Below, one piece after another: positions 26,164 through 51,144 of a stretch of DNA of 64,000 nt (positions within the stretch are counted from its first letter, which is position 1; each line of letters opens with the position of its first letter). Source of the DNA: Trueperaceae bacterium. Its GTDB lineage: Bacteria; Deinococcota; Deinococci; Deinococcales; Trueperaceae. The DNA lies in assembly GCA_965213705.1 (NCBI GenBank), contig OZ243913.1, positions 4,096,001-4,160,000 of the forward strand, read 5' to 3'. Under the pieces are notes generated by a model, which saw nothing but the letters and a program-made list of their open reading frames with translations, did no database searches and had not been told where the DNA came from. A program made the translations under genes and the position numbers.

Positions 26164-29040
26164 CTAGGGGAGGTGGGGAAGCTCAGAAGTCCCCGCCTCC
26201 TCCAAAATGGATAAAATCAGGGTTGCAACCTGCTCCGACGGTAAATCGCACCAAACCGGTGTACCGTCGTAACTCGGCAAACCTTGAAAAACCTTTCTGT
26301 CCGCATAAACCATGTAGGGCGTTTTGGCCTTACAGTAGGCGTATAGGTCTGCGCTCAGCCCGCACAGGGAATTCTTGGTCCCGGCCTGCAGGACGCCCAC
26401 GAGATGGTGCAAGATGATGGGGTCGCTCTGCGTCCACCGAGCTTTTTTAAGCCCTGCACGGTAGTGTTCAAGAGCACGTTGAGGCTCGTCCTCCAGCAGG
26501 TGGACGGCTCCCAACGTCCCGTGCGCTCTCACCTCCTTGCCGATCGAGCGCTGGGCCCGAGCCTCGGTGAGAACCTCGTAACCGAGCTGTTCGGCACGCT
26601 CGCGGCGGCCCTCGAGGGCGAACAGGTGAGCGAGTTTCGCCCGGCTGAGGAGCGCCCAGTGCGCGAGGCCGAGCGCTTTTGCGCAGTCTGAGGCCTGCTC
26701 GAGCCTGAGGCGCGCCTCCAAGGTGTTACCGGTTTCCAGGGCCAACCAGCCGCCGACATAGTTGCACCAAATCTTTTTAGCCGCTATGCCTTGCTGGTCG
26801 AAGAGGTGTTCGGCCGCCGCGAGGCGCGACCGGGCTTCGGCGTAGTCGCCCCGATTGACGGCGTTGATGGCGAGGTTGGTAAGCGCGCTGGCCGCTTCGC
26901 CCGAATCCGGTTCGGCGTAAGTGAAGGCTGTTTCGAAGTAGCCGCGGGCTTCAGCGAAGCGGCCCAGCGAGTCGTAGGCCGCGCCGAGCGTGTTCAAGCA
27001 GGTCTCTCGCGCGCACCCACCACTCAGCGTCAGCGCTGCCTCGGCGGTATGAACGGCTTCAGCGTAACGGCTCGAGCGCAGCAAAAACCAGGCCCGACTT
27101 GCTTGCAAAGCCACAGCCATACCCTTATCTTGCAGAGCCGCGGCCGCTTCCTCGACAAGCTCGAGGCCCTGCTGCGGGCGTGAGTGCAGGTCGTACAGGC
27201 GTTGCAAGGTGGGCAGGGCAGGTTGCAGGACGTGCATCCACTCCTGCCGAACGGCCCAGCGCCAAGCTGCGGCGATGTTGGCCGAACTGGTTTGAAAATC
27301 GACTTTACCCTTCGAGCCTGGCGGCTTTTCCGAGGGTCGCTCGGGCTGCGCTGCGGCTTGCAAGGCCGTCAGATAAAAGGTCGCGTGCCGACTCCGCAAG
27401 GCTGCCTTAGCGGGATGACGTTCGTACAGGTAGCGCGCGAGCAGCGGATGCAAGCTGTAGCGGTCGCGCTCGAAACTCAGGAGCGAGGCGTCTAATAAGC
27501 GCCTCAAGTGCCGAGGTTTCGCCCCGAGAAGCTGTTCGGCAGCCGAGAGAGAAAAACCGCCCCGAAACACGCTCAGCTCGCGAAAGACGGTGGCCGTTTC
27601 CGCGTCGAGGAGAGTGACCGAAAGGTCGAAGGCGGCGTTCAAGTCTTCCCCGTCCGCAGCGCTCAGCGCGCCCAAGTCGGACCTCGAGCGCTCTACAAGC
27701 TCGGCGAGCGGCAGGCTCGCCGTCCAACCCGCGACGAGCTTGAGGGCGAGTGGGACACCGACTGTGTGCCGACACAGCTCGAGCAGCAGCGGTGCATCCT
27801 CGTCGCTGAAAACCGCCCCTTGCCGCGCCGCCGAACTCAGGAAGAGCTTGCCCGCCGCGCTCCGGCCGAGCTGGGCCAGCGTACTTCCCTGGGGCGGCAA
27901 ACTCAAACCGCTCAGGCGAAAAACCCGTTCGTCCTCGAGCCCGAGCCGTTCGCGTGAGGTCACGAGAATTCGCAACTCGGAACAGGCGCGCAAAAGTTGC
28001 CCGATGACGCCCCTCAGCTGGAGCAAGGCCTCGAAATTGTCGAGCACGAGGAGAATGCGCGGCGCGGCGAGGTGCCCGGTCACGGCTTCGGTCAGGTATT
28101 CGAGCTGCGGCTTCACACCGAGCGCGTCGGCCAAAGCTTGCCACAGCGCGCCAGCGGGCGCGTCTTGCGGGAGGTCGGCCAAAGGTACCAGTGCAATTTC
28201 GTCGAAAAGAGACTCGCTTTGCTGCACGAAGGCTTTGGCAAGCTCCGTTTTACCGATGCCGGCCAATCCCGTAACGGTCACCAGGCGTTCTCCGGCCAGA
28301 AAGTGCTCGTGCAGCTGCGTCAACTCGGCCTCGCGGCCGACGAACAGAGACGTCACGCCGACTTCTTGACGAGGCCGACCTCCCTTTACGCTCACCCTAC
28401 TCGCGAAGCCGCCGTGCCACTCGGCCGTTGCACGCTGCACAGCGTCGGCATCGGCGGGGAAACCCAGCTCGAGCAAAAGCCGGTGCATTCGCTCCACGTT
28501 GTAGAGGCTGGGCAGCGCCACACCGTGCGGCAACCGAAAAGCCCGCAGCACCAACGCGCGCGCTCCCGCCGCCTCGCCCTGCCGCCGGCGCTCTTCGGCA
28601 AGGGTCAGCAAAACGTCGGCAAAGCTGTTTTGCAGGGTTGCACGCTCAATACTCAGCCACTCGCTCACCTCTTCCCCGAGCCGTAGGCGCGTCTCCTCGA
28701 GCCCGTACAGAAACGGCCCCCGGTACAGCGCCACAGCGCGTTCGTACTCTTTTTGGGTAAGGGCGCGCCGAAACTCGGCCGCGTCCACGGGCACATGGCA
28801 GCCGAGTCGCCCGCGCCCCGACTCGAGCAGGTTCGGGTCCAGCTTTTTGAGCCGACGCAGCGCCTCTGAAAGGCTTTTGCTGCGCCTAGTCGCGTCTATT
28901 TGATGGGGCCAGAACAGGGCTTGCAGTTCTTTGCGCAAGCATGTGTCATGCAGCGCAACGTAAGTCAGCAACAAAAGAGGTTGGGGCTCGGCAAAGTCGC
29001 TGCCCTCGAGCCTCAAACCTCCTAACGTCACCAGCCGCAT
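26164..29040 (-). CDS. AfsR/SARP-type regulator: wHTH-BTAD, NB-ARC, TPR
   Basis: LFWP...LYRGPFL (BTAD); FVGREAEL, GLAGIGKT, LVLDNFE, TSRE, GVPLAL, LHPLL; TPR-like C-terminus; TATAAC-N6-ATG leaderless start. Confidence 0.92.
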   Translation of the reverse strand: MRLVTLGGLRLEGSDFAEPQPLLLLTYVALHDTCLRKELQALFWPHQIDATRRSKSLSEALRRLKKLDPNLLESGRGRLGCHVPVDAAEFRRALTQKEYERAVALYRGPFLYGLEETRLRLGEEVSEWLSIERATLQNSFADVLLTLAEERRRQGEAAGARALVLRAFRLPHGVALPSLYNVERMHRLLLELGFPADADAVQRATAEWHGGFASRVSVKGGRPRQEVGVTSLFVGREAELTQLHEHFLAGERLVTVTGLAGIGKTELAKAFVQQSESLFDEIALVPLADLPQDAPAGALWQALADALGVKPQLEYLTEAVTGHLAAPRILLVLDNFEALLQLRGVIGQLLRACSELRILVTSRERLGLEDERVFRLSGLSLPPQGSTLAQLGRSAAGKLFLSSAARQGAVFSDEDAPLLLELCRHTVGVPLALKLVAGWTASLPLAELVERSRSDLGALSAADGEDLNAAFDLSVTLLDAETATVFRELSVFRGGFSLSAAEQLLGAKPRHLRRLLDASLLSFERDRYSLHPLLARYLYERHPAKAALRSRHATFYLTALQAAAQPERPSEKPPGSKGKVDFQTSSANIAAAWRWAVRQEWMHVLQPALPTLQRLYDLHSRPQQGLELVEEAAAALQDKGMAVALQASRAWFLLRSSRYAEAVHTAEAALTLSGGCARETCLNTLGAAYDSLGRFAEARGYFETAFTYAEPDSGEAASALTNLAINAVNRGDYAEARSRLAAAEHLFDQQGIAAKKIWCNYVGGWLALETGNTLEARLRLEQASDCAKALGLAHWALLSRAKLAHLFALEGRRERAEQLGYEVLTEARAQRSIGKEVRAHGTLGAVHLLEDEPQRALEHYRAGLKKARWTQSDPIILHHLVGVLQAGTKNSLCGLSADLYAYCKAKTPYMVYADRKVFQGLPSYDGTPVWCDLPSEQVATLILSILEEAGTSELPHLP

Positions 29041-29223: not shown

Positions 29224-29982
29224 ATGAAGCCTTCTTTTTCTTACAGCCTCAGCCACACGCTCCGCTGCCCTCGCCGCTTTCACTCAGAGAAGTTGCAAAA
29301 GGAACCCGTCCTCGCTCCGTTCGCCTCGAGCACCCTCGGGCGCGAGGTTCACGTGCGCGTCGCCGCCAGCCTCCACAGGGGTACACCCGCCGACGAACGC
29401 TCTTTCCGCTTGCCGAAGCGCGTCTTGTTGCAAGCCGGAGAAAACCTCGACGACCTCGTCTGGCGCGCTCACTGCGCCCTCAGCTTTTACAACGCCAAGT
29501 GCCGCGCCTGGCTCGCCAGGAAAACCACGACCTGTGTTGAGCACTACGTCAGCCGCCCCTACCCACTTCAAAGCGAGACCGTGCAAGTGAGTGGTATTTT
29601 CGACCTCGTTCTTTCTAGCGCCAAAGGAGACGTGCTCATCGACTGGAAAACGGGCAGCGCGCAGCGCAGCGAAGACCAGCTCAAGTTTTACCTCATGCTG
29701 CGCTTTTTAGAAACCGGGCGGCGACCCCGGCACGCCGAGGCGGTGGCGTTAGGGACGGGCGAGCCTTTGTGCATCGTTTGGGACAGCGAGGTAGAACCTT
29801 GGTTCGAAGACAAGCTCGAGGCGATGCGCCGCGACCTGGCCGCTTGCCATACGCGCGCGGCCGTCCCAGGGTTTCACTGCACCTACTGCCCTTACGCGCA
29901 GCGCTGCGAGGCCAGCGAAGCGCCGAACAGATGGGTGCTCGACACTTTTACCGGGGAGGTGACGCACCTTGGGCAAGCGTGA
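29224..29982 (+). CDS. Cas4/RecB-like PD-(D/E)XK nuclease with Fe-S cysteines (alternative in-frame starts 29113/29125)
   Basis: CPRRF, G..VH, GIFDLV, IDWKTG, QLKFY, CTYCPYAQRC. Confidence 0.88.
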   Translation: MKPSFSYSLSHTLRCPRRFHSEKLQKEPVLAPFASSTLGREVHVRVAASLHRGTPADERSFRLPKRVLLQAGENLDDLVWRAHCALSFYNAKCRAWLARKTTTCVEHYVSRPYPLQSETVQVSGIFDLVLSSAKGDVLIDWKTGSAQRSEDQLKFYLMLRFLETGRRPRHAEAVALGTGEPLCIVWDSEVEPWFEDKLEAMRRDLAACHTRAAVPGFHCTYCPYAQRCEASEAPNRWVLDTFTGEVTHLGQA

Positions 29983-30937
29983 AAAAGGCGAGGCGACGCT
30001 GAGGCTCGTCGAATTCGTCGACTACCTCCGCGAACACCCGGAGCAACACAAGGTTGCGGCCTTAGCGGGGCACTTCGGGGTCGACCGTAATCAAATTTAC
30101 CGCTGGGCCAAGTACGCTTATGACCGTTACGGCATTCCCATCGACCTGCCGCCCTTGGTCGAACGCGGCTGCGTCAAACTCGGTGAGGGCGACCACGCGC
30201 TCAAACGAGTCACCTTGGACAGAATCGAAGTCGAGGCGCTGCTCGCAGCCGCCGTCCGCATCGAAGCCTTGACCCCCTATGCCAGACAAGCCCTCGACAA
30301 GCTCGAGGATGCCCGGCGCTTGCCCGAAGACACCCTGCAAGACCCCGTCCTCTACAGCCCGCTCATGGACGAATACGCCCCCGAACTCTTCGAGCGCGTC
30401 GTCAAAGCCGTCAGAGACTACCGAGTAGCACAGGTCAGCTACACCAACGCACGGGGCGAGCGAAAAACGTATCTCTTCAACAGCTACGCGCTCATCGCGG
30501 ACGGGCAGCACCTTTACCTGGTCGGTATCGCCCACAGCAGCCTAGAGGCCGGTTACGACACGGTCATCCCCTTACGCCTCGACCAGATAGAGCACTTCGT
30601 CCTTCAACAAGGTTCGTTCAAAAAACCGTCTTTCGACGCGAAAACCTACGCGCTCAGAGAGTTCGGCCCGTTCAAAGCCGAGGGAGAGGTGCTCAGCATC
30701 AAAGTTCGGTTTTCTGCTGAAAAAGCTCGCTACATCGAGCGCACCAGGCGGCACGAGAGCCAAAGGTGTGTAAAGCATGCGGACGGCACGCTTCTGTGGA
30801 GCATCAGCGCGCCGCTGAACGACGCGCTCGTTTACTGGATTACGAGCTACGGGCCGCACGCCACGGTGCTCGAGCCCGAGGAGCTGAGAGAACAGGTGCT
30901 CGAGTGGGCGCAGGGGAGTGTCAATGCCAATTCATAG
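29969..30937 (+). CDS. HTH-WYL-WCX transcriptional regulator
   Basis: N-terminal HTH; YTNARGE...LYLVG...LRLDQI; WITSYGPHATVLEPEELR. Confidence 0.9.
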   Translation: MGKREKGEATLRLVEFVDYLREHPEQHKVAALAGHFGVDRNQIYRWAKYAYDRYGIPIDLPPLVERGCVKLGEGDHALKRVTLDRIEVEALLAAAVRIEALTPYARQALDKLEDARRLPEDTLQDPVLYSPLMDEYAPELFERVVKAVRDYRVAQVSYTNARGERKTYLFNSYALIADGQHLYLVGIAHSSLEAGYDTVIPLRLDQIEHFVLQQGSFKKPSFDAKTYALREFGPFKAEGEVLSIKVRFSAEKARYIERTRRHESQRCVKHADGTLLWSISAPLNDALVYWITSYGPHATVLEPEELREQVLEWAQGSVNANS

Positions 30938-30954
30938 CCTAACGTCGATACCCG

Positions 30955-31221
30955 CTAAACAGCCGTTTTGGGACGAAGCTTATAAACCTCAGCAAGCTCA
31001 TGCTCGAGGTCTTCTGCGCTGTAATCGGGGTAGTAATAGCCGTGTGAGGTGTACCAGCGGATGGCCTCGAGCCGGTTCAAGCCCAACAGCGAACCTGCCT
31101 TGCCGACACTCATGCGCTCCTCGCGCACCATTTGCAGCAGCAGGCTTTCTAAGACTTTGCGCTCTAAGTCGTCTCCGTAGGCGGCGAGTATTTCGGGGGG
31201 AAGCTCGAGGGTTATGGGCAT
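30955..31221 (-). CDS. UPF0175-family protein (antitoxin-like)
   Basis: ITLELP...MSVGKAGSLLGLNR; TACAAT-N6-ATG leaderless start. Confidence 0.8.
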   Translation of the reverse strand: MPITLELPPEILAAYGDDLERKVLESLLLQMVREERMSVGKAGSLLGLNRLEAIRWYTSHGYYYPDYSAEDLEHELAEVYKLRPKTAV

Positions 31222-31282
31222 ACAGAGATTGTAGAGCAAAAAGAACTAAGGAGGCCAGTTTATAATGACCTCCTCTTCCACC

Positions 31283-31361
31283 ATTATCCTCTGCGAGGTT
31301 GGTTCACGTATCTCTTTCATTGTTTCAATCTTCTTACGAAGATGTTTTGATGATAGCAAAG
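31283..31361 (-). CRISPR. Degenerate CRISPR mini-array (CreR/CreA-like regulatory crRNA)
   Basis: Pseudo-repeat ending ATCTTC-GTAA-GAAGATTGAAAC; spacer AATGAAAGAGATACGTGAA; partial repeat AACCTCGCAGAGGAT. Confidence 0.8.
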
Positions 31362-31418
31362 TTGGTCTAGGTGTACGTAAACTTAGAGTTCAATTTCACG
31401 TTCTTCTCTCATTAACCC

Positions 31419-31447
31419 TTGACAAAGAAAATTCTTTCTCTTACACT
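31419..31447 (+). promoter_or_regulatory. Strong sigma70 promoter of the cas interference operon
   Basis: TTGACA-N17-TACACT. Confidence 0.85.
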
Positions 31448-31536
31448 CCCATAAACCAGCAGGCTGGCTTCGCGCCTACCAAGCTATCAAAGCCAGCTGC
31501 TGCAACGAAAGGCTTCACTGAAAGGAGTGAAGAACT

Positions 31537-31725
31537 TTGTCTATGGGATTATACAACCTTGATCTTGAAACAATTCTTCAGGAGTTTACAAGGGAAACCC
31601 TTGCTACTCTCGAGAAAGAACTTTCTCCCGAGCAATATGCATTTGTCGAGACGCGGCTACAACAGCTTGAGGCTGATAAAGTTTTCGAGCTTTATGAGCA
31701 GGAACTCTACGGAGTTGATTCGTAG
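31537..31725 (+). CDS. Small acidic protein, first gene of the cas operon
   Basis: AAGGAG RBS; stop directly precedes the cas3 RBS. Confidence 0.65.
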   Translation: MSMGLYNLDLETILQEFTRETLATLEKELSPEQYAFVETRLQQLEADKVFELYEQELYGVDS

Positions 31726-31737
31726 GAGGATAGTGAT

Positions 31738-33804
31738 ATGAGAGCCGCATTGAGCCTAACTCTACTCGAGGCCTGGTCAAAACGCTACACGGGAGGCCTG
31801 AATTTTGCCTTGCCAGAGGGTTGGCAACTCGCCACTCACCAAAAAGAGGTGTATGACACGCTGCACGAGCCTGATATAGATGTTGTGTTTGATACGGCGA
31901 TGACCGGGGACGGGAAGAGTTTAGCCGCTTATTTACCCATGCTTCGCCCGCAGGCTAAACGGCTGGGTAATGCTGTAGTCGCCTATCCAACCAATGAACT
32001 CATTCGCGACCAGGAAAGGCAGGTTAAAAACTACTTGGATGATTTCTCTGTTGACTTGAGCTTCCAAAAACTCAACGGAGAAACTATAGGAAGCGTGGCT
32101 AAGGAAAACGAAGTATCCCGCTACGAGTCAATTAAAGATTTGGTCTACAGGCAAAAGCTTCTGCTGACCAATCCCGATGTTTTTAATCTTATCGAAAGCT
32201 TTGCCTACACTAGCCCTATCAATCCGGCAACGCTTGCCCAAGAGTTTTCCAGCCTCTTTCGTTATGTGGTTTTTGACGAGTTTCACATTTTTGCGGCTCC
32301 GCAGATAGCCGCGATTATCGACGCCATGCTGTTCATTCGGGCAAACGGCAGTGCGAACTTTCCGACTAAGTTTCTATTTCTGTCGGCAACCCCGAGCCCC
32401 ATTCTCAGAGACGTCCTGGACAACGCTGATTTCAGGTTCCGAGTTATCGAGGGAAGCTACCAACACGGTCCCAAACCCAAAGGTGCTTACCGAAGCATTT
32501 TGCAAGAGGCAACCCTCGAGCTTGAACCCTGCGAGGCAAATACTGGTGGCATTTTGGGGTGGGCAACAAACAATCTCGAGAAAATCAAAGGGTTTTATCG
32601 TGAGAATCCGGGAAGTAAAGGGTTGATTATCTGTAACAGCGTATTTACGGCAAAAAAGCTGTATGCCTATTTGCGAGAGGGCTTGGTCGATACGGGAATC
32701 TCTTTAGGTGAAAATACAGGTTTGACGGGCAAGGAAGAAAAGCAAAGGTCATTAGAGCAAGACCTTGTTGTGGCGACATCAACAGTGGACGTTGGTGTCG
32801 ATTTCCGCATCAACTTTCTTATTTTTGAGTCTTTGAATGCCGGTTCTTTTATTCAACGTTTGGGTCGTTTGGGCAGACATAAAGATTTTCCTGTCTATCA
32901 CGCAGTAGCGCTATTGCCACAGTTTTTGGTTGAACGCTTTGCAAAGCATTATCAAGATGGGCAGACGGTTGACAGATGGTCTTTTTTTCAAAACTTGAGT
33001 GAGATTAAAGACGATAAAGCCGAGCAAATTTTTCCGCCGGAACAGGAGTTCAAGCCTTATATCAAACGTTGGGGCGGTGTCAAGGCAGTTCAGCGTCTAG
33101 GCAAGCTCTATAAGTATGGGGGTAAGGACAAATATCAGACACTTATACAGCGCTATCAACCGAATGCCGCTCAGGTTTTCAAGATTGCGAGCACAACCCA
33201 GGCTCGAGCAAGGCGACTTGAACCGGCTGTAAACAAAGAACTGTTCTCCTTCCGGGGTGCCGGACTGATGGACATCTGGACCTTTGACCCTTCTTCAAAA
33301 GCAGTAACTACGGTAAATGTTCTAAGGCTTTTGGCGGGGACAGAGTTTGGGTTGATCAGCAAACAAGAAGCGGAAGCTATCGCCATAATACACAGCACGC
33401 CTTTTTATCCAACTTACCTGAATCTCTACGCCAAAATCCACAGCTATAAGGAGGAGTACGACTTTGTTCAACTCCGCTATCAGCACACTTTTGGAGATGA
33501 TGGTCAAGCTTTCAATCACGCAGCAGACCGCGCCGGGTTTTTACTAGAAGCCGCTCATCCCGATATTCGCAAGGTGAGCCAAGCTCTCGTCAACAAACCT
33601 CTCTGCAGTTGCGTATGTGATAAAGAGCTGAGTGGTGAAAGCCCGCGAAACGCCCAAAGAATTTTGAGTTTGCCACCCCTGTTCAGTTTGGCCCAGGTCA
33701 TCGATAGCACCAACACTTCCTATACCGTTGCCTTTGGTCACGAAGCCCTTCTGCTGGACAGCCTTATTCACTGGCGAAAAATAAACGACTATTTCATTGC
33801 TTGA
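31738..33804 (+). CDS. cas3: Type I-D helicase Cas3' (no HD domain)
   Basis: TAMTGDGKS, YPTNEL, FDEFH, LSAT, STVDVGVD, QRLGRLGRH. Confidence 0.95.
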   Translation: MRAALSLTLLEAWSKRYTGGLNFALPEGWQLATHQKEVYDTLHEPDIDVVFDTAMTGDGKSLAAYLPMLRPQAKRLGNAVVAYPTNELIRDQERQVKNYLDDFSVDLSFQKLNGETIGSVAKENEVSRYESIKDLVYRQKLLLTNPDVFNLIESFAYTSPINPATLAQEFSSLFRYVVFDEFHIFAAPQIAAIIDAMLFIRANGSANFPTKFLFLSATPSPILRDVLDNADFRFRVIEGSYQHGPKPKGAYRSILQEATLELEPCEANTGGILGWATNNLEKIKGFYRENPGSKGLIICNSVFTAKKLYAYLREGLVDTGISLGENTGLTGKEEKQRSLEQDLVVATSTVDVGVDFRINFLIFESLNAGSFIQRLGRLGRHKDFPVYHAVALLPQFLVERFAKHYQDGQTVDRWSFFQNLSEIKDDKAEQIFPPEQEFKPYIKRWGGVKAVQRLGKLYKYGGKDKYQTLIQRYQPNAAQVFKIASTTQARARRLEPAVNKELFSFRGAGLMDIWTFDPSSKAVTTVNVLRLLAGTEFGLISKQEAEAIAIIHSTPFYPTYLNLYAKIHSYKEEYDFVQLRYQHTFGDDGQAFNHAADRAGFLLEAAHPDIRKVSQALVNKPLCSCVCDKELSGESPRNAQRILSLPPLFSLAQVIDSTNTSYTVAFGHEALLLDSLIHWRKINDYFIA

Positions 33805-33815
33805 AAGGAGTAGTA

Positions 33816-36800
33816 ATGGATGAAAACGAAGACATCTTAACCGAGTTCAACTTTGAAGACTGGGAAGAGCCTTTAGAACCAAAGGCTTATGAGCAGGTAC
33901 AAAGGCCCCCATTTGCAAAACTCATACTCGACACGGTTCAGGATGCGCCCTCAGCGCTTCAGGATTGGGCAGAACTGGTTGTACCTAAGCTTCTCAGTGT
34001 TCTGGCGCTGCGTAACGCGAAAGGCATGGGCGAGGTCGAAGCGAATCGGTTCTTGGGAAAAACGGATTTCAAGTCAGGTCAGGCTCGAGCCAAAGCGTTC
34101 AAAAAATTAACCGAAATGCCCGATCAAAGTCTCGCCGTTCACACCCTGAATGCGGCTTTGGGTGGCTGGACGGTCGTTGCGCTTGCGAACCTTGATGATT
34201 TCGAGCAACGCCTGTATTTAGCAGGGATAACCTTGCACGACCTCAACAAGATGTTGGGAACAACTCTGCGTTTGCAGGGTGAGCAGAAAGAGGCCTTTGA
34301 GGAAGCTTTCAAAGCCTGGGCTGAACGCCTTGGCCTTTGGCAATTTATAGGCGAAAACCACTGGGCCGATGTTGCTTACTTGGCTCAAAACGCAGAAGCC
34401 GTCAAGGGTGAGAACCGCACACTCTTCAACTACGACCAGTTGCAAACATCACCGGAAGACTTGGAGCCTATCAGCGATTTTGTTCGCTTGGCCGATCTCC
34501 TGGCAAGCGCAGCCAAACACCCTGACGACGTTTTAAACATGGGAGGCGGCAATAAAGTCATAGAAACGCTTCGGCGCGTTCTACGGGGGAAATATATACT
34601 TCGTTACCACAAAACCGCCGACAACCGTGGCTTACTCACCCAACTGATTCACAATGCTGTTTTAGAGCAAGCCCAAGAGAAGGGTTGGCTACCTTTCCTG
34701 TACTTTCCCGACGGCGTGACTTACTTAGTCCCTAAAGAAGCGGAGAACATCAATCTCGAAGACGTTCCCCAGCGAGTTAGGCAAATGCTTGTAGAGTCCG
34801 TAGCCGACAAGCTGGGTCAACTGGTGGCTCGAGCCCCCACCGGAATGCGTTACAAGCCCGAATTTATCGAACTTTTGACACCTGCTCGAGCTTGCAAGTT
34901 GGCAATCCAAAGGATTTTGGAGATTATCAGCGACAAAAAGCCTCCCGTGACCGACGAGCGAAAGGCGAAGACTGTACTCCGCAAAGATGCCACGGTCAAG
35001 CTCGATTTTGACTATGGCGCTTCTCTGAACGCCGACCGATTGGCGGAAGGCTTGTTCGGTGTGTCGAAAATAATCTTCGACTATTACGGGGATGATAGAG
35101 AGACACATGGGGGGTCCCTCATTTGCGCACTTGGGCTGGGGGATTTGGTAGAGACATTCAGGTCTATCGAATTTACAGGCGGCGTGGGTTATCCCTGGTA
35201 CTACATCGGGGGTCACTACATACACCGCAATCCCGGCTTAGATGCCAACGACGTTGAAAACGTGATGCAAAAAGCGGTAACTCAGGTTTTAGGCGACCTC
35301 GGTGAACCGAAAAAAGAGCCCCCTTTCGGCTTTTTGGAAAGTTACATCGGCCAAACACTCAGCACAGGCACCGAGCGTGAAGCATGGAACTTCTCGGGCG
35401 AGTTGGAGCGGTATGTCGTCAGTAAAAAACTACGCAGTGGACAGCGAGTTTGTGCAGTCTGCAACAGTAGCTTTGCTGTAAGAGCAGACTACTCGACATT
35501 TTCTAATAAGCAAGTTGCAGGCTACGCCGATGCGCGCCGCGGTATCTGTCAGATCTGTCAGGCCGAAAATCTACTGCGCCGCTTCACGCTCGGAAAAGAC
35601 ATGCTGTCAGATGACGGCACGAAGTTCTTGCATCTCTACCCAACTTACTTCTTTACACCTATCACAGCGAAGGTGATGCAACACGCCTATCAATCTTTCA
35701 AACAAGCCACTTTTGCCGAAATTGCCAAACCTTATCAGCAAGCCGATTACGAGGTCAGGGCGATTCTCCATGCTGACGTTTTCCAGGTTTTGAAAGCCGA
35801 TAACCCCAAAAGACGACTTGACAGAGTGGACTATCCCGAGGGACAGATGCACGGTTACTTCCTGCTCGGAGTTCCGTACTTGGGGCGCGACCCGAGCGAT
35901 ACCGAGACGTGGGTCATGCCTGCGCTGCTGGCGCTGCTTTCCCCTTTACTGTTCGGCACGAAAGCTGTGGTCAGCGATTCGGCTTTACCGCTGTTTACGA
36001 GCGGTGCGGACTTTCCCGAGACGGTCGTTCTCGACGCGCCCCACAGCTTTTGGCAGCACGGCATAAAGAAAACGAGGTTTCGTCTGGATGAACTCGAGAA
36101 AGGTTTGCATACAGTATTGGCACTTTACGGTTTGGTCAGCGAAGCCTACAAAGACGGCAAGGGTTATGCCATTTGGAATCAGCTCGGCTCGGTGGCTCGA
36201 AACCTCGACTCCGAACCTCTAAGCATCTTCGGCTACGCGGACCGTATCAGCTCACAGCTCAGCAAGGGAAAAAGCACCCTCACAAGCACCGACGGCATGT
36301 CTCCTTGGTTGGCTCAACGTTTAACAACCTACTACGAATCAACGCTGGACTTCTACGAAACTTACTCTTTAGGAGGTACATCAAGAATGGGATTGATTCA
36401 GGAAACCGTCGATAAATATGCGAAGTTTTACAGGGCGCGAGGCTCGAGTTCGGCTTATGCAAGATTGCGTCCCTTGGACGACGCTATCAAAGTTATTCTG
36501 GCTGCACCGACAGAAGAGCAACTCGACCAAGAAAGCTTGCACCTTGAAATTATGGGGGCGCTGATGGCATATCTAGGCAGAATTAGAGATAGAGATCCAT
36601 CGATTAAAGGCATCATTCCTAAAGGTATGTGGAGTGATGATGTCCTACTCCCTGCGGTGAGCGACTTTGCAACCCACATGTTGGACAAGGTGTTTTGTGA
36701 CTTCGCCGGAGGTGACAGGGCAATTTTGAGGAAGCAACTCAACAAGTTCAAAAATGGTTGTGAAGCTTACTACGTTCTTCATTACGGAAGAAAAAAGACG

Positions 36801-36845
36801 GATGAAAGCGCCTCTACAGAAAATCACGAAAAGGAGAGTAGCTGA
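33816..36845 (+). CDS. cas10d: Type I-D large subunit Cas10d (Csc3) with N-terminal HD nuclease
   Basis: DQSLAVHTLN, LHDLNK, LADLLAS, CAVC...CQIC, HLYPTYFFT; AAGGAG RBS. Confidence 0.95.
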   Translation: MDENEDILTEFNFEDWEEPLEPKAYEQVQRPPFAKLILDTVQDAPSALQDWAELVVPKLLSVLALRNAKGMGEVEANRFLGKTDFKSGQARAKAFKKLTEMPDQSLAVHTLNAALGGWTVVALANLDDFEQRLYLAGITLHDLNKMLGTTLRLQGEQKEAFEEAFKAWAERLGLWQFIGENHWADVAYLAQNAEAVKGENRTLFNYDQLQTSPEDLEPISDFVRLADLLASAAKHPDDVLNMGGGNKVIETLRRVLRGKYILRYHKTADNRGLLTQLIHNAVLEQAQEKGWLPFLYFPDGVTYLVPKEAENINLEDVPQRVRQMLVESVADKLGQLVARAPTGMRYKPEFIELLTPARACKLAIQRILEIISDKKPPVTDERKAKTVLRKDATVKLDFDYGASLNADRLAEGLFGVSKIIFDYYGDDRETHGGSLICALGLGDLVETFRSIEFTGGVGYPWYYIGGHYIHRNPGLDANDVENVMQKAVTQVLGDLGEPKKEPPFGFLESYIGQTLSTGTEREAWNFSGELERYVVSKKLRSGQRVCAVCNSSFAVRADYSTFSNKQVAGYADARRGICQICQAENLLRRFTLGKDMLSDDGTKFLHLYPTYFFTPITAKVMQHAYQSFKQATFAEIAKPYQQADYEVRAILHADVFQVLKADNPKRRLDRVDYPEGQMHGYFLLGVPYLGRDPSDTETWVMPALLALLSPLLFGTKAVVSDSALPLFTSGADFPETVVLDAPHSFWQHGIKKTRFRLDELEKGLHTVLALYGLVSEAYKDGKGYAIWNQLGSVARNLDSEPLSIFGYADRISSQLSKGKSTLTSTDGMSPWLAQRLTTYYESTLDFYETYSLGGTSRMGLIQETVDKYAKFYRARGSSSAYARLRPLDDAIKVILAAPTEEQLDQESLHLEIMGALMAYLGRIRDRDPSIKGIIPKGMWSDDVLLPAVSDFATHMLDKVFCDFAGGDRAILRKQLNKFKNGCEAYYVLHYGRKKTDESASTENHEKESS
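36387..36845 (+). CDS. cas11d: Cas11d small subunit from an internal start in cas10d
   Basis: In-frame ATG (MGLIQETVDKYAKFY) preceded by AGGAGG at 36371-36376. Confidence 0.8.
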   Translation: MGLIQETVDKYAKFYRARGSSSAYARLRPLDDAIKVILAAPTEEQLDQESLHLEIMGALMAYLGRIRDRDPSIKGIIPKGMWSDDVLLPAVSDFATHMLDKVFCDFAGGDRAILRKQLNKFKNGCEAYYVLHYGRKKTDESASTENHEKESS

Positions 36846-37771
36846 TGTTCGACGCATATGAAAAATACTTCCATACGGCAATCCCTCTGCGCCCCGGTGC
36901 AAAGTACGCCCACATCCTAGTTCTCCGCAAAACGGAAAGTTACGCAGTTTTCAAAACAGATGGCGAACTCAACACTGCTAGGGTTAGCTCGGGTCTCGAG
37001 GATAAAACACAAATCTCACGCTTGACGATTTTCAAACGCAAACAGACCACCCCCGAGCGCTTGACAGGCCGAGAGATTTTGCGCCGTTACGAACTCTTAC
37101 CCGCTGACGACCAGTACAACGTGAACTTCACACCCGACTCGCCCGACTCGGTCATTTACGGCTACGCTATTGGTGATTCGGGGTCTGAAAAGTCGAAGGT
37201 CTATGTAGACACAGCCTTTTCTCTCACCAACTACGACGTTTCCCACGAAACGATGACGCTGAACGCGCCTTACGAGGACGGCACCATGACGCGGGGCAGC
37301 AGCACCACAAACCGTTTTAGCGAACAAGACCATGTTCTGCCGGAAGTTTATTTTCCGAGCGTCGTCACCGTTCGAGACCCTACCCAAAATACGCTTGCTT
37401 ACGTCATCAACAACATCAGACGTACCAAACGTTACGGCGCACAAACAACGCGAACCGGACAAGTGTCCAACCAAATCGTCGGCCTTATCTTTGCCGACGG
37501 GGAGATTTTCAGCAATTTACGGCTTGTCCAAGCGATGCACGACCTTTTGGAAAGCGACAAAACCCTCAGCCAAGACGCTGCGATGGTACAGGTCGCCCGC
37601 GACCTCGTAGCACGCGACGGCGTCATTTACGAACTGGTCACGGGTGAACAGCTCGAGGTGTTGCTCACCGAACTCGATGCTGTTTTTACGGATGAAACGC
37701 AGTTGAAAACCTTTTTGACCGACCTCTACAGCGAAACGAAAGCCTACGCTGAATCCGTGAAAAACCAGTAG
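36845..37771 (+). CDS. cas7: Type I-D Cas7d (Csc2)
   Basis: FKRKQTTPER.TGRE, YGYAIG, RYGAQTTRTG. Confidence 0.95.
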   Translation: MFDAYEKYFHTAIPLRPGAKYAHILVLRKTESYAVFKTDGELNTARVSSGLEDKTQISRLTIFKRKQTTPERLTGREILRRYELLPADDQYNVNFTPDSPDSVIYGYAIGDSGSEKSKVYVDTAFSLTNYDVSHETMTLNAPYEDGTMTRGSSTTNRFSEQDHVLPEVYFPSVVTVRDPTQNTLAYVINNIRRTKRYGAQTTRTGQVSNQIVGLIFADGEIFSNLRLVQAMHDLLESDKTLSQDAAMVQVARDLVARDGVIYELVTGEQLEVLLTELDAVFTDETQLKTFLTDLYSETKAYAESVKNQ

Positions 37772-37776
37772 CAGTT

Positions 37777-38433
37777 ATGCATGCTTACCACCTAGAGATT
37801 GACTTACATGACCTCATGTACTACGCTTCTCGCGAACTGGGGCGCATGTACATCAGTGAGCGCTATATCCACAATTACGCGCTGACCTACGCCTTGGGTT
37901 TAGCTAAGAGTGGCTATCACGACGCGGTTCAGGTGCCTCACTACCGAGAAGACTTGGAACCTCTGAATGACGCTGGAGTTTATGTCACTCCTGCCAAACC
38001 CATCCGTGTGGAAACGTCTACGCATACGTTCAAGCTCGCAGACACTCGGTACCAGGTCAAAATGGAGCAGTCGAGCGTCAACATTCCCACCTTTGGACGC
38101 ATTCGCGAGATAAACCCCGAATCGCGTTATGAAGCCTTCGTTCTTACGAAGGAGAAGCTCGAGCTTCCCAAGTGGATTCGGCTTGGTAAGTGGATGAGCA
38201 AAGCCTCGGTAGCAACTGCAGAAGTCGAAGTGAGTGAGGGAAAGAAAACGTTTAGCACTTTGCACCCTCTCAATGGTCTCGACTTACCTTTCGACGCGAA
38301 GCTTTACGACCTTATCAACATGCCTCCGGTCTCTCTTATCGAAAATGCAAGGTTTGAGGGCGAGTGCTACACCCTGAAGCTGAGCGAGAAAGAGACTCGC
38401 GAGTTTCCAAAAGGACTAAGGTACACCTTCTAA
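37777..38433 (+). CDS. cas5: Type I-D Cas5d (Csc1)
   Basis: ASRELGR, IHNYALTYALG, PKWIRLGKWMSKA, MPPVSL. Confidence 0.95.
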   Translation: MHAYHLEIDLHDLMYYASRELGRMYISERYIHNYALTYALGLAKSGYHDAVQVPHYREDLEPLNDAGVYVTPAKPIRVETSTHTFKLADTRYQVKMEQSSVNIPTFGRIREINPESRYEAFVLTKEKLELPKWIRLGKWMSKASVATAEVEVSEGKKTFSTLHPLNGLDLPFDAKLYDLINMPPVSLIENARFEGECYTLKLSEKETREFPKGLRYTF

Positions 38434-39233
38434 TGCCCCATGCTTTCCTCCTCCACCTCACCCCCACCACCCGCGCCCCCGACCACCCCTACCTCCACCA
38501 GTACACCCACGGCCTCTTCTATCACCTGTTGGAAACCATTCATCCCGCGCTGAGCGCCGACATTCATGCCAGCAAGCGCAACCCCTTCACGCTTTGGGCC
38601 AGGGAAAAGGACGGCGGCATCTTGCTGCGCGTGACCGTCCTGAACGATACCCTCTTTCAATCGCTGCTCGAGGTGGTGTTGCAAGAATCCTTGACGGGCC
38701 TGGAGCTGGGCCAGGACAGCTACCGGGTGGCGAGGGTATTAGCGACGCCGGAAGGCCACCGGGACGCGGGCTTCTTAGGCTGGGAAGATGTTTTATGTGC
38801 CCGGCCCGTGAACAGGCTCGAGCTGCGCTTCGTCACGCCGACGGTGTTTGCGACCTCGAAAGGGAAAAAGCGGCACTACACGCCGCTACCCCTGCCGAGG
38901 CTGGTGCTGAAAAGTTTGCTGAACGCCTTTCAAGCCTACAGCCCCGCGCCCTACAGCGAGCCGGAAGCGGCGGGGTTGGAGGCTATGTTCGACGAACTGT
39001 TCGTCGTCACAAGTCACGATATTGCCACAAAGCCCCACAAAGCGGGCAAGGTCAGGCTGACCGGCTTCGTGGGGCGGGCGAGCATTCGCTATCAAGAGGC
39101 GTCGGGGCGGGTCGAGAAAGCGCTCGGGCAGCTTGCCAGCCTCGTCTTTTTCAGCGGGGTGGGGGCGAAGACGCCTTACGGGATGGGGCAGGTGCGTGTA
39201 AAGGTTGGAAGCGGGCAAGTTGGTAGCAAGTAA
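38433..39233 (+). CDS. cas6: CRISPR endoribonuclease Cas6
   Basis: F.TPT.F, GFVG, C-terminal G-loop FSGVGAKTPYGMG. Confidence 0.95.
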   Translation: MPHAFLLHLTPTTRAPDHPYLHQYTHGLFYHLLETIHPALSADIHASKRNPFTLWAREKDGGILLRVTVLNDTLFQSLLEVVLQESLTGLELGQDSYRVARVLATPEGHRDAGFLGWEDVLCARPVNRLELRFVTPTVFATSKGKKRHYTPLPLPRLVLKSLLNAFQAYSPAPYSEPEAAGLEAMFDELFVVTSHDIATKPHKAGKVRLTGFVGRASIRYQEASGRVEKALGQLASLVFFSGVGAKTPYGMGQVRVKVGSGQVGSK

Positions 39234-39266
39234 CGTAGGCACTGGAAAAAGCCCTATGATGAAGCT

Positions 39267-39464
39267 GTGAACGAGTTCGAGCTTTTGAACAGAATAACCC
39301 TCGACCCCGACATCTGTCACGGCAAACCTTGTATCAGAGGGTTGCGCTATCCCGTCGAGACGATTCTGGAACTTTTAGGGAGCGGCATGTCCTTCGGGGA
39401 TCTTTTGGACGACTACGAAGACCTCGAGCGCGAGGACTTGCAGGCAGCTCTAATCTGGCAATAA
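39267..39464 (+). CDS. DUF433-family protein (antitoxin-like; partner absent)
   Basis: RITLDPDICHGKPCIRGLR...ILELL..G. Confidence 0.85.
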   Translation: MNEFELLNRITLDPDICHGKPCIRGLRYPVETILELLGSGMSFGDLLDDYEDLEREDLQAALIWQ

Positions 39465-39519
39465 CCGTCACTGCGCCGCTCGCTGGCAGCCGCTTCTATC
39501 CCTGTAAACCTCATCCGTA

Positions 39520-39543
39520 AGCCTCGTTGGAAGCTCGTTGGAA
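39520..39543 (+). promoter_or_regulatory. 11-bp-period direct repeat TCGTTGGAA upstream of cas4
   Basis: AGCCTCGTTGGAAGCTCGTTGGAA; 10 nt before TACGCT. Confidence 0.7.
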
Positions 39544-39600
39544 CGCCGTCGTTTACGCTTGTCTCGAGCCCGAGACGCCTATCCGATGTACGGAGGTTCT

Positions 39601-40161
39601 ATGGAATATTTGCCCATCAGCAAAATCAACACGGTCGTTTTTTGCCCGCGCCGCTACTACATCGAGCAGCTTTTGGCGGACACCGTGACGAACTATCACA
39701 TGACCGAGGGCACGGCGCTGCACGAGCGCACGGTGCGGACAGGCGAAGGCGTGTGGGTGTGGAGCAACTGCCTGGGCGTCAGCGGGATTATCGATCAGGT
39801 CGTACACGAGGACGGCGAGTGGGTCATCACCGAGTTCAAAAAGGGCTACCTCGGTGAGCACGAGAGCGACCGGGTGCAACTCTGCGCGCTCGCAGTTTGC
39901 TATGAGGAGGTTCACGGCGTGCATCTGAGTCACGGCTACATCTACTACCACCGCACCCGCAGGCGCAGCTTGGTCGAATACACACCCGAGCTGCGGCAGC
40001 GGGTCGAGGCGGCGGTCGCCCTGATGCGTAGGCTCGAGCAGCAAAGCCACTACCCGCCGGTCATCGACAACCCCAACAAATGCCAAGGGTGCAGCGTGCG
40101 CGAACCCTGCCAGCCGACGCTGACGCGCAGGCAGTTACCCCGCTGGAAGGGAGCAGTGTGA
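39601..40161 (+). CDS. cas4: CRISPR-associated Cas4
   Basis: FCPRR, G..LH, GIID, EFKKG, QLCA, CQGCSVREPC; GGAGG RBS. Confidence 0.95.
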   Translation: MEYLPISKINTVVFCPRRYYIEQLLADTVTNYHMTEGTALHERTVRTGEGVWVWSNCLGVSGIIDQVVHEDGEWVITEFKKGYLGEHESDRVQLCALAVCYEEVHGVHLSHGYIYYHRTRRRSLVEYTPELRQRVEAAVALMRRLEQQSHYPPVIDNPNKCQGCSVREPCQPTLTRRQLPRWKGAV

Positions 40162-41135
40162 TGGGTACGCTCTACGTTTTAGAACCTGACGTCTACCTGT
40201 CCAAAGACGGCGGCGTGCTGAAAGTTTCGCGCAGCAAGGGGCGGGAGGTGCTTCTCGAGCGCCCCCTGGCCCACGTGTCCGACGTGGTGATTTTGGGCCG
40301 GGCGACGGTCACTTCGTCGGCCCTTCAAGCCTGCGCCGAGCAGGGCACGGCGATTCACTACCTCACCCGCGGCGGCAAGTACGTGGCGCAGGTCGCCCCC
40401 GTCGAAAACAAAAACGTGCTGGTGCGCATCAAGCAGTACGAAGCGTACCTAAACCCCGAGTGGAAACACAGCTTGGCGCGGCGTTTTGTCGAGGGCAAGC
40501 TCGCCAACGCTATCGTCTTCGCGCGGCGGGGAGGCGCGGAGGTGGGCAGTTTGATGGCGCTCGTCAAACCTATCGCAAGGTGCGACAATACGGAAGCCTT
40601 GCGGGGGCTCGAGGGCAACGCCGCCCGGCTCTACTTCGGCCTCTTGAAAGACAAGTTCCCGGCAGCGTTCGCGCCCGAGTCGCGCAGTAAACGCCCGCCA
40701 CGCGACCGCGCCAACAGCTTGCTGTCGCTCGCCTACACCTTTTTAGCCAAAGAATGCCAGACGGCGGTCCGGGTGGCCGGGCTCGACCCGTATGTGGGCT
40801 ACCTGCACGAAGCCAAGTACGGCAAACCCGCCCTCGCCCTGGACCTGATGGAAGAGTTCCGCTCTATCATCGCCGACTCGGTGACGCTGACGCTCTTCAA
40901 CCGCGGCATGATTACCGAAGACATGTTCGAAGACGAGCGCGGCTATCCGACCCTGGCCGACGAAGGCTTCAAGCAGTTTTTACGAGCCTGGGAAGACCGC
41001 CTCAACCAACAGGTACACCACCCGTACCTCAAACAAAAGCTCGACTACCGGCAGGTGCTGGTGGCGCAGGCGCGCATTTTGGGCAAGCACCTCATGGGCG
41101 AACTGCCGGAGTATCTCCCCTTTACCGTGCGCTGA
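40161..41135 (+). CDS. cas1: CRISPR integrase Cas1
   Basis: RGLEGNAARLYF, NSLLSLAY, GLDPYVGYLH, LALDLMEEFR. Confidence 0.97.
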   Translation: MGTLYVLEPDVYLSKDGGVLKVSRSKGREVLLERPLAHVSDVVILGRATVTSSALQACAEQGTAIHYLTRGGKYVAQVAPVENKNVLVRIKQYEAYLNPEWKHSLARRFVEGKLANAIVFARRGGAEVGSLMALVKPIARCDNTEALRGLEGNAARLYFGLLKDKFPAAFAPESRSKRPPRDRANSLLSLAYTFLAKECQTAVRVAGLDPYVGYLHEAKYGKPALALDLMEEFRSIIADSVTLTLFNRGMITEDMFEDERGYPTLADEGFKQFLRAWEDRLNQQVHHPYLKQKLDYRQVLVAQARILGKHLMGELPEYLPFTVR

Positions 41136-41413
41136 TGTTTTACCTCGTCATCGCCTACGACACGCCCAGCGACAAGCGGCGCATCAAAATGGTGAAGCTC
41201 CTGAAGCGCTTCGGCGAGCGGCGGCAGTACAGCCTGTTCGAAGCGAGGGTCAGCCGCGACCAGTTGGCGACGTTGCAAACCTCGCTGGCTAAAATCGCCG
41301 ACGAAACCGAAGACACACTGGCGATTTACTTCTTGACACCGGAAAGTTTGCAGCGAACTTTCCGCATCGGCCACAGTGAGATAAAATCTTTAAGGGAGCC
41401 TGACTTTGTTTAG
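41135..41413 (+). CDS. cas2: CRISPR-associated Cas2
   Basis: VIAYD, RRQYSLFE. Confidence 0.95.
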   Translation: MFYLVIAYDTPSDKRRIKMVKLLKRFGERRQYSLFEARVSRDQLATLQTSLAKIADETEDTLAIYFLTPESLQRTFRIGHSEIKSLREPDFV

Positions 41414-41635: not shown

Positions 41636-44016
41636 CTTGCAATAACTTCGAACCTCGTAGAGGATTGAAACACTCGAAGAGGAGGCCCGGATGGTTGACG
41701 GCTTCACTTGCAATAACTTCGAACCTCGTAGAGGATTGAAACACGCTCGAGGCGCAGCTCGTGGGACTCGACCTAAACTTGCAATAACTTCGAACCTCGT
41801 AGAGGATTGAAACTGCGTACCAGGTTTTCACAGCGCCACCGCCTCGACTTGCAATAACTTCGAACCTCGTAGAGGATTGAAACTCGTTGTACATCCATAC
41901 GCGCAACCGGTCACGCAACTTGCAATAACTTCGAACCTCGTAGAGGATTGAAACAACGGCGAGGGGGATGATGACCGTGCTGGCGAACACTTGCAATAAC
42001 TTCGAACCTCGTAGAGGATTGAAACTTCACCAAACCGGGTGCGACGTTGGAGATGTAGACTTGCAATAACTTCGAACCTCGTAGAGGATTGAAACACTCG
42101 ATTTTCTTTTTCGGATGGTTGACGGCTTCACTTGCAATAACTTCGAACCTCGTAGAGGATTGAAACTTTATACTAACACACGTAGGTTAGTAATGCAATA
42201 CTTGCAATAACTTCGAACCTCGTAGAGGATTGAAACTCAAAAGGAATGCCGAGCTGTTGAAGGATAGCTTGACTTGCAATAACTTCGAACCTCGTAGAGG
42301 ATTGAAACACTTTGTTGTAATCGTCAGCCGTCCAAACGACGTTCTTGCAATAACTTCGAACCTCGTAGAGGATTGAAACATGGATTCCCAGTCGAGAAGG
42401 CCGTGCGCCACGTCCTTGCAATAACTTCGAACCTCGTAGAGGATTGAAACGTTACTTACCGAGCTGTCCCGGCGCTCATGAGCCCGCTTGCAATAACTTC
42501 GAACCTCGTAGAGGATTGAAACTTATTGAAAAAGGTTCACCACAATGCGCACATGTTACTTGCAATAACTTCGAACCTCGTAGAGGATTGAAACCTGTTG
42601 GAAGAGAGGCTCGAGCTTCCAATCATCTTGCAATAACTTCGAACCTCGTAGAGGATTGAAACAGAGGGTTGAGGACGCTTAAACGGCCCGTGCCGCCTTG
42701 CAATAACTTCGAACCTCGTAGAGGATTGAAACACAGTAAAAACCCAAGTGGTATAGCCCCATCACCTCCTTGCAATAACTTCGAACCTCGTAGAGGATTG
42801 AAACTGGCGCAAGGTCGCCATGCAACTGTTTCAGGACAACTTGCAATAACTTCGAACCTCGTAGAGGATTGAAACCTTTTTGCTCGAGACAGGGACTACC
42901 TCACCATTGACTTGCAATAACTTCGAACCTCGTAGAGGATTGAAACAAAGTTGGACTACCGAGGTAAATACCTCGTCATCTCCTTGCAATAACTTCGAAC
43001 CTCGTAGAGGATTGAAACACCCACCGGGGCCGCATCGTCACCCTGAAAGAACTCTTGCAATAACTTCGAACCTCGTAGAGGATTGAAACAACTCTGTCCA
43101 ATAACTCACTGTTCACCTCCTGACACTTGCAATAACTTCGAACCTCGTAGAGGATTGAAACTTTGGACGTTGAACGTACTGCTGAGCATCGCCTTCCTTG
43201 CAATAACTTCGAACCTCGTAGAGGATTGAAACAATTTTACCTCAACGACAACCTGAAAATCATCCACTTGCAATAACTTCGAACCTCGTAGAGGATTGAA
43301 ACCCTTTGCCCCGCACGGTGGCCCGCTCGAAGGGGTTGCTTGCAATAACTTCGAACCTCGTAGAGGATTGAAACACAAGCTAACCCGGCTTAGCACGCTG
43401 CTCACGCTAACTTGCAATAACTTCGAACCTCGTAGAGGATTGAAACTCTTTTGGTACGGCCGCCTGCACATCCATGTTGAACTTGCAATAACTTCGAACC
43501 TCGTAGAGGATTGAAACGGCCTGCTATCGTAGCAAGCGAAGGCGGGGCCAGCTTGCAATAACTTCGAACCTCGTAGAGGATTGAAACATAGCTCAGTACG
43601 ACGTGACCAACGGCGTTTGGAAACTTGCAATAACTTCGAACCTCGTAGAGGATTGAAACCTCAGAGATGAGTTTCATCCCCAACTCTTTCCCGGCGTCTT
43701 GCAATAACTTCGAACCTCGTAGAGGATTGAAACAGCGTCCAGAGATTCGCCGGAGACGCGGCGTAGCCTTGCAATAACTTCGAACCTCGTAGAGGATTGA
43801 AACTCGACACCCTTACGAATCGCTAGATTCTCGGTGTCTCTTGCAATAACTTCGAACCTCGTAGAGGATTGAAACCGGGACAGTCTTTACGCGGCGCTCG
43901 CCACGGCAACCCTTGCAATAACTTCGAACCTCGTAGAGGATTGAAACGAGACGTCGCCGTTCCAGGCGGCGATGACCATGCTTGCAGTAACTTCGAACCT
44001 CGTAGAGGATTGGAAT
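41636..44016 (+). CRISPR. CRISPR array: 34 repeats (CTTGCAATAACTTCGAACCTCGTAGAGGATTGAAAC, 36 nt), 33 spacers of 32-38 nt
   Basis: Counted by hand; last repeat degenerate (CTTGCAGT...GGATTGGAAT); 3' ATTGAAAC handle gives + orientation. Confidence 0.98.
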
Positions 44017-44035
44017 GAATCGGTACAGGCCAATC

Positions 44036-51143: not shown

Positions 51144-51144
51144 C

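Follow-up and report, generated by a model that had tools for sequence, protein, structure and literature searches.

Circuits in which a CRISPR guide RNA represses its own locus are already known, the type I-D cases among them being predictions. For type I-D, mini-arrays directed against cas10d and against upstream cargo, with empty relatives, have been predicted (10.1101/2023.03.03.530964). CreR guides, which are described without a toxin and are defined by the absence of a coupled one, were tested in types I-B, I-E and V-A only, as far as the account in 10.1101/2023.03.10.532045 goes, and creA-like I-D elements are mentioned there. In the CrePA module of Acinetobacter type I-F systems, the partner CreP is a 103-aa protein with a phage KilAC domain whose toxicity was shown (10.1101/2024.01.05.574328), and in CreTA the toxin CreT consists of a Shine-Dalgarno (SD) motif, a mini-ORF of a few codons and a hairpin (PMC9458426, 10.64898/2026.06.02.729485). 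In the open-licence PMC and bioRxiv literature, only predictions and no experiment on an I-D regulatory mini-array were found. With regard to the I-D machinery, Cas6d is described as cutting the repeat at the base of its stem to leave an 8-nt handle, native crRNAs as 39-45 nt long and the PAM as GTN (PMC10212523), in agreement with the PAM that the original prediction for the present locus had assumed.

The locus analyzed here lies in a window of 64,000 nt from a Trueperaceae bacterium (Table 1). Its cas operon is of type I-D, as cas3', cas10d, cas7d and cas5d match TIGR03158, TIGR03174, TIGR03157 and TIGR03159 above cut-off (NCBIfam); the cas2-like ORF at the operon end is a putative assignment from sequence. 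Upstream are genes for a PD-(D/E)XK nuclease, a WYL/WCX regulator and a UPF0175 protein, followed by a minus-strand mini-array and a conserved 60-aa ORF, which is the first gene under the targeted predicted promoter and is separated from cas3' by 12 nt containing an SD motif, with no terminator found in between. It is very probable that this mini-array gives rise to a CreA/CreR-type guide that directs Cascade to repress the common promoter of the small ORF and the cas genes, a reading supported by the unique target, the position of the PAM and the co-variation of spacer and target in relatives. On these grounds the original prediction, in which a crRNA-like RNA guides I-D Cascade to the cas promoter, holds up in its central part, although it overlooked that the 60-aa ORF is the first gene; its parts were likewise placed correctly, but the predicted terminator (31275-31248), both leader hairpins and the ORF were missed. 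Since the first gene is a conserved ORF that co-occurs with the mini-array, the cassette may be a module of the CreA/CrePA type rather than a stand-alone CreR.

Table 1. Features of the cassette and its surroundings (positions within the window)
Feature	Position	Strand	Remarks
WYL/WCX regulator gene	29969-30937	+	runs into cas operon in cassette-free relatives
UPF0175 gene	30955-31218	-	without partner
Predicted intrinsic terminator ending the mini-array transcript	31248-31275	-	10-bp stem and T-tail
Pseudo-repeat 2	31286-31300	-	hairpin only, handle lost
Pseudo-spacer	31301-31321	-	21 nt, of which the first 19 (31321-31303) face the target
Pseudo-repeat 1	31322-31343	-	Cas6-type hairpin (4-nt loop) and 8-nt handle ATTGAAAC
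Predicted mini-array promoter	31350-31358	-	extended -10 (TG-n-TATCAT), conserved in 3/3 I-D loci
Target (protospacer)	31395-31413	-	about -59 to -41 relative to the inferred start site
GTT PAM	31414-31416	-	invariant in 3 I-D loci
Targeted sigma70-type promoter (predicted)	31419-31447	+	TTGACA-17-TACACT, 10/12 consensus
5' leader hairpin 1	31457-31502	+	-20.9 kcal/mol, z -2.5
Leader hairpin 2	31513-31532	+	contains SD motif (31522-31527)
Conserved 60-aa acidic orphan ORF, candidate Cascade-repressed toxin	31543-31725	+	possible TTG start at 31537
cas3'	31738-33804	+	first cas gene of the operon
Type I-D operon (cas3', cas10d, cas7d, cas5d, cas6, cas4, cas1, cas2-like ORF)	31738-41413	+	NCBIfam, Pfam
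CRISPR array	41636-44018	+	33 exact 36-nt repeats and one degenerate last repeat

Compared with the predicted I-D mini-arrays (10.1101/2023.03.03.530964), both kinds have two repeats, lie opposite to cas3, keep the first repeat better and face a PAM-flanked partial target in a cargo promoter upstream of cas, with empty relatives; the cargo described there comprises toxin-antitoxin genes and regulators, whereas here it is an orphan 60-aa ORF that also occurs with type I-B. The I-D cases in that report are predictions only, and the present loci may already be among them. As in CreR (10.1101/2023.03.10.532045), the first repeat has an 8-nt handle, the second has a 3' part and the target adjoins the cas promoter, but a small candidate-toxin ORF is coupled here, and, in contrast to the tested CreR subtypes, the HD nuclease of type I-D sits in Cas10d inside Cascade. 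CrePA (10.1101/2024.01.05.574328) has in common two pseudo-repeats, a 19-nt partial match with PAM and, within the cas locus, a small ORF some 120 bp downstream of the target; the small ORF of the window is also directly under the predicted repressed promoter, yet it is an unrelated candidate with no Pfam or PHROG family (KilAC) at a meaningful E-value. A CreA-type guide and a hairpin in the repressed transcript are found in both CreTA (PMC9458426, 10.64898/2026.06.02.729485) and this locus, but here a full 60-codon ORF follows the SD motif, and no conserved mini-ORF at usable SD spacing was seen among the cassettes compared. New features are the orphan ORF as a family, its association with the guide in two effector subtypes and the predicted promoter that replaces the 5' half of the repeat.

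The mini-array consists of degenerate repeats of the cognate array, the first of which retains the 8-nt handle. Its hairpin, CTTC-GTAA-GAAG at 31341-31330, the handle at 31329-31322 and the partial second repeat are all at the positions originally claimed, including the compensatory change in the stem. The fold of pseudo-repeat 1 (-5.8 kcal/mol, z -1.5) is weak taken alone, but its stem is preserved through a C-G/U-A change among three loci; a weak match to Rfam CRISPR-DR18 (E 4.1) is below the gathering threshold. While the handle alone is common (23 copies of GATTGAAAC in the genome outside the array), CCTCGNAGAGGAT, a 13-nt motif of pseudo-repeat 2, is the sole genome copy outside the array, and exact copies of the 36-nt array repeat were not found in the genome outside this array. 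Pseudo-repeat 2 is identical to the hairpin of the own array in 4/4 genomes checked (G023, G109, G125 and G320) and differs in one loop base in the window. The length of the pseudo-spacer up to the next hairpin is the same in three I-D loci, and the repeat anatomy predicts a mature guide RNA of 42 nt (31329-31288, minus strand), within the range reported for native I-D crRNAs (PMC10212523). A stem and T-run of other sequence, judged by eye, also follow the mini-array in the related loci L015 and L027.

The upstream part of the claimed repeat appears to have another role. In 3/3 I-D loci, the motif TGnTAnnAT precedes the handle end by exactly 37 nt, even though G023 and G109 have array repeats that are unlike it in their 5' half, and this conservation makes the extended -10 the preferred mini-array promoter, most likely standing in place of the 5' half of the repeat; at the corresponding place it was not seen in three I-B loci. 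The RNA would then start at about 31343, the foot of the first hairpin. Thus, of the degenerate repeat originally proposed for 31361-31322, the hairpin and handle (31343-31322) stand and are probably the only functionally repeat-derived part, whereas 31361-31344 is probably promoter and not a repeat remnant; the likeness of 31361-31350 to the own array repeat may reflect origin or chance. The promoter that had been suggested for the mini-array, TTGAAC-N18-TAGACC, does occur as a string (31393-31364), but it was not scored as a promoter, is in an unconserved stretch and is probably the wrong choice.

The pseudo-spacer is partly complementary to a PAM-flanked site with an intact seed. A recheck of the sequence confirmed 15/19 identities with the target 31413-31395 and mismatches at positions 6, 10, 11 and 12, as well as the GTT next to the -35, the two being 2 nt apart, which places the target beside the predicted promoter of cas and cargo. 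The -35 (31419-31424) and -10 (31442-31447) would give a start site at about 31454. Although TTGACA-17-TACACT is the only sigma70-like site found in 30900-31800, one such site is expected by chance, so the real support for this promoter comes from conservation. Among the 165 sites in the 4.25-Mb genome that have GTN and a perfect seed at positions 1-5, the proposed target alone reaches 14/16 pairing (non-flipped) positions, the runner-up reaching 12; when neither PAM nor seed is demanded, a single additional site, apart from the spacer itself, scores 14. Shuffled spacers scored at least 14 in the intergenic region 31362-31545 in 3 of 100,000 trials, and none of the 32 array spacers tested has a PAM-plus-seed site there. 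The GTN PAM is taken from the literature and not from protospacers of this system, since none were found for the window array spacers in the genome or in the fetched loci of relatives.

Two points from I-D biochemistry bear on the quality of the match. Mismatches at the sixth position are tolerated by I-D Cascade (PMC9881144), and position 6 is mismatched in 4/6 loci, whereas the flipped-base register is worded as "starting at position one" in PMC10212523, which counts against the present reading. In addition, there was no tolerance of seed-proximal mismatches in the I-D transposon assay as described in PMC9881144, and the window guide has mismatches at 10 (a G-T wobble) and 11 and may therefore bind weakly. 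These mismatches are a real weakness, though repression takes binding only.

In a survey of 128 genomes of the family, four had cas10d above cut-off (the window genome, G023, G109 and G004), and the same cassette is present in G023 (L015) and G109 (L027), while G004 has the same neighbors with neither mini-array nor small ORF. In the alignment of the three I-D loci, both hairpins, handle, target, PAM, -35, -10 and leader are kept and the DNA between them diverges, with an identical distance from PAM to spacer. The 17-nt spacing of -35 and -10 is kept in L015 and L027, and with other sequence in L111 and L122. The covariation of spacer and target that the original prediction had proposed to look for was seen at positions 4 and 17, where both have G in the window and A in L015 and L027; however, it rests on two positions in three kin loci, with probably one event each. 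When scored over 15 positions, the L015 spacer fits the L027 target better than its own (15/15 vs 14/15), and the window spacer fits its own and the L027 target equally (13/15 each).

The cassette was also found with type I-B effectors. In a survey of 364 genomes of the phylum, nine had this cas8b, and three of these loci carry a cassette (G008, G125 and G320; cas8b by PADLOC). In G008 and G125, homologues of the ORF are divergent from their own mini-array, downstream of the WYL gene and ahead of cas8b-cas7b-cas5b, the ORF family being thus found ahead of both I-D and I-B effectors. G320, from another family of the order, was found by pattern scan and has a different small acidic ORF upstream of cas8b; in its locus L122 and in L119 this ORF has 53-56 aa and an acidic tail and is unlike that of the window. 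Neither mini-array nor small ORF is present upstream of cas8b in the other six genomes, among which G304 and G057 have other cargo there and G038 was represented by 90 bases only, enough to show a WYL-like end abutting cas8b. Over the 13 I-D and I-B loci, mini-array and small ORF are therefore both present in six and both absent in seven, a coupling in 6/6 genome loci if the G320 ORF, of uncertain homology, is counted. In the metagenome contig L119, near-identical to G320, the ORF has an internal stop and the mini-array is intact; its downstream differences from G320 are largely synonymous.

The spacers of the I-B cassettes are unrelated to that of the window, and for each of them the best GTN site lies in the promoter region of its own cassette. 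Scored over positions 1-11 without 6, at GTN sites only and among loci that are kin, the guide of G125 matches its site at 9/10, where 3 nt separate the PAM from a TTGACT-17-TACACT promoter, that of G320 at 9/10 over the -35, and that of G008 at 7/10 on the other strand, compared with 4-7/10 for spacers and targets of unrelated cassettes. Spacer and target hence change together across six loci, G008 being the weakest and one cross pair beating its cognate. The PAM of the I-B clade is presumably GTN as well, judging from these matches and the shared cas1d-type adaptation genes. In G008 (L098, 10420-10520), the best site overlaps a TAACAT -10 that is apparently the mini-array's own, hinting that this guide represses itself. 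The I-B-like clade (L098, L115 and L134-L146; cas8b of 745-822 aa) has the WYL gene, the repeat family and cas1d-type adaptation in common with the I-D loci, pointing to a possible swapping of effector modules.

The pattern scan for mini-arrays matched seven of the 364 phylum genomes; the matches in G057 and a second one in G008 were short spacers in ordinary arrays and were rejected, the G057 array (G057:C2:2599723-2600272) having several very short spacers of 4-20 nt. Six matches were obtained in the metagenome, five by chance and one real (L119), and none in viral contigs. In cyanobacterial I-D loci (L025, L062, L077 and L085), a handle and spacer with GTN-flanked partial targets near cas3' were also observed, a DUF433 gene preceding cas3' in L025.

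The predicted transcript begins with two hairpins. In leader hairpin 1, three of the eight core pairs are changed on both sides among three loci, and the loop in L027 (2835-2880) has the opposite orientation to that of the window and L015. Such a micro-inversion, lying between the two arms of the stem, suggests that the stem matters and the loop does not. In leader hairpin 2, all seven pairs are invariant in the three I-D loci and so give no covariation support. Sequestration of the SD motif as in type I toxin mRNAs was ruled out, as its unpaired probability in five cassettes (0.67, 0.61, 0.23, 0.17 and 0.17) is within or above the range of six control genes (0.11-0.54).

The 60-aa ORF has the same length in L015, with 58% identity, dN 0.29, dS 1.99 (dN/dS about 0.15) and differences by codon position of 19/12/31, the other frames being much less skewed; by these sequence measures it is a real gene under purifying selection. 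The protein has 14 D/E and 4 K/R and is modeled as a two-helix hairpin (pLDDT 84). Homologues were detected in G109 and, as weak profile matches, in G008 (E 0.004) and G125 (E 8e-4). No match was obtained by word search of the 5.8-billion set, where the family alignment retrieved one match, the G008 protein itself, nor in PADLOC, PHROGs, Pfam, plasmids, phages, a metagenome peptide scan or among longer proteins; the atlas gave none by features and structure rows under threshold, and Foldseek of the model against PDB and BFVD none at E<=0.001. A 614-aa repetitive protein, the sole match in the representatives library, was judged spurious, and weak phylum matches in G084, G236 and G244, located inside long frames, were set aside as chance. 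By these comparisons the protein belongs to no described family, and no toxin family, fold or motif was found for it in the libraries searched.

Taken together, a mechanism can be proposed. Lying between the WYL and cas genes, the cassette would bring its own promoter and its own brake. From the extended -10 promoter, a minus-strand RNA of about 100 nt would be made, in which Cas6, given the repeat anatomy, may cut at both hairpins to release a crRNA-like guide of 42 nt that has a normal 8-nt handle. Type I-D Cascade would load this guide, read the GTT PAM beside the -35 and form a partial R-loop, no longer than 19 bp, over the upstream part of the promoter region; by analogy with CreA/CreR in types I-B, I-E and I-F, such an R-loop should be too short to license cutting by Cas3'/Cas10d and would block RNA polymerase. 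In the repressed transcript, the leader with its two hairpins would come first, followed by the 60-aa ORF and the cas genes, presumably co-transcribed, and the negative feedback would keep the level of Cascade in step with free Cascade. Repression would lift when crRNAs or anti-CRISPRs occupy Cascade, and the small ORF would be switched on simultaneously.

The role of the small ORF within this circuit can be seen in two ways. It may encode a small CrePA-like toxin that halts growth upon loss or blockage of Cascade and is the principal thing repressed, which would make the cassette an addiction module with cas autoregulation incidental through the joint promoter. The shared presence and absence of mini-array and ORF over the 13 loci, the purifying selection, the place of the ORF as first gene of the transcript, after a 5' hairpin that covaries, the occurrence of one ORF family ahead of two effector subtypes, the adjoining conjugation genes and a layout matching CrePA as outlined in 10.1101/2024.01.05.574328 speak for it, whereas the lack of any toxin signature in the libraries searched, acidic soluble helices that fit an antitoxin or inhibitor equally, an SD motif not more hidden than in control genes, the uncertain homology of the G320 ORF together with the disrupted L119 copy beside an intact mini-array, and the chance that co-occurrence reflects one inherited block make an addiction module a tentative proposal. 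The guide may instead be a stand-alone CreR that tunes cas expression, the ORF being a harmless accessory such as a WYL/Cas modulator, and we give this even chances: no terminator separates the ORF from cas3', the ORF overlaps the cas8b start in G125, and CreR without toxin is described (10.1101/2023.03.10.532045), yet among the 13 genome loci every intact mini-array is accompanied by a small ORF, and the 60-aa ORF shows no sign of any binding partner.

Readings without guide-directed repression fare worse. A decayed relic, in which the match arose by chance or local duplication or is no longer functional here, is improbable: spacer and target share an orientation and lie at a distance of 92 nt in AT-rich DNA (42% GC), and the window guide has two mismatches near the seed, but the score is almost never reached by shuffled spacers, conservation is limited to functional elements, the I-B loci have unrelated spacer-target pairs, and the predicted promoter, terminator and cas genes are intact. 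It is highly improbable that the RNA acts without targeting DNA, either as a Racr-like decoy for Cas6/Cas7 or by binding transcripts that read through from the WYL side; I-D Cascade is reported to bind single-stranded RNA (PMC10212523) and the guide is complementary to the plus strand, but such a role needs neither an invariant PAM by the -35 nor the tracking of target by spacer, and the target is upstream of the inferred start site. Repression of the promoter by the guide is accordingly the preferred reading, for which the locus offers a compact and clean test case of RNA-guided self-repression in type I-D, with cassette-free relatives as natural controls. Should the 60-aa protein prove toxic, it would represent a new toxin family for CRISPR-guarding modules, in a module that moves between subtypes by rewriting its guide; if not, the cassette would be one more CreR. 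A further proposal, which we regard as doubtful, sees in the cassette a portable anti-anti-CRISPR addiction module, whose undescribed 60-aa toxin family and re-writable guide would insert between the WYL regulator and I-D or I-B effector genes, take over their promoter and arrest the cell when Cascade is blocked, and which would be a first tested case of non-cutting I-D repression.

The UPF0175 gene was also considered as a member of the circuit and ruled out, as a terminator lies between and the gene is also present in the cassette-free G004 and G057. Its counterparts in L027 and L111 precede a 158-aa ORF, which we take to be PIN-like, although that of L027 has no Pfam match at 1e-5; the C-terminal PKTAV of the window UPF0175 protein resembles the start of this ORF, which suggests that a toxin partner may have been deleted from the window.

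Several other features of the surroundings were observed. A conjugation cluster (44036-54879; thioredoxin, ATPase, SLT, coupling protein, TrbL/VirB6 and TraG P-loop) comes right after the array, and the CRISPR-Cas locus may therefore be carried on a mobile element; an IS3-like integrase is located at 58886-59761. Two large NTPase-TPR (STAND-like) genes are present (13057-16023 and 26164-29040), the latter divergent from the PD-(D/E)XK and WYL genes. Within the array, spacers 1 (41672-41706) and 7 (42096-42130) have their first 6 and last 19 bases in common, probably due to overlapping acquisitions or recombination.
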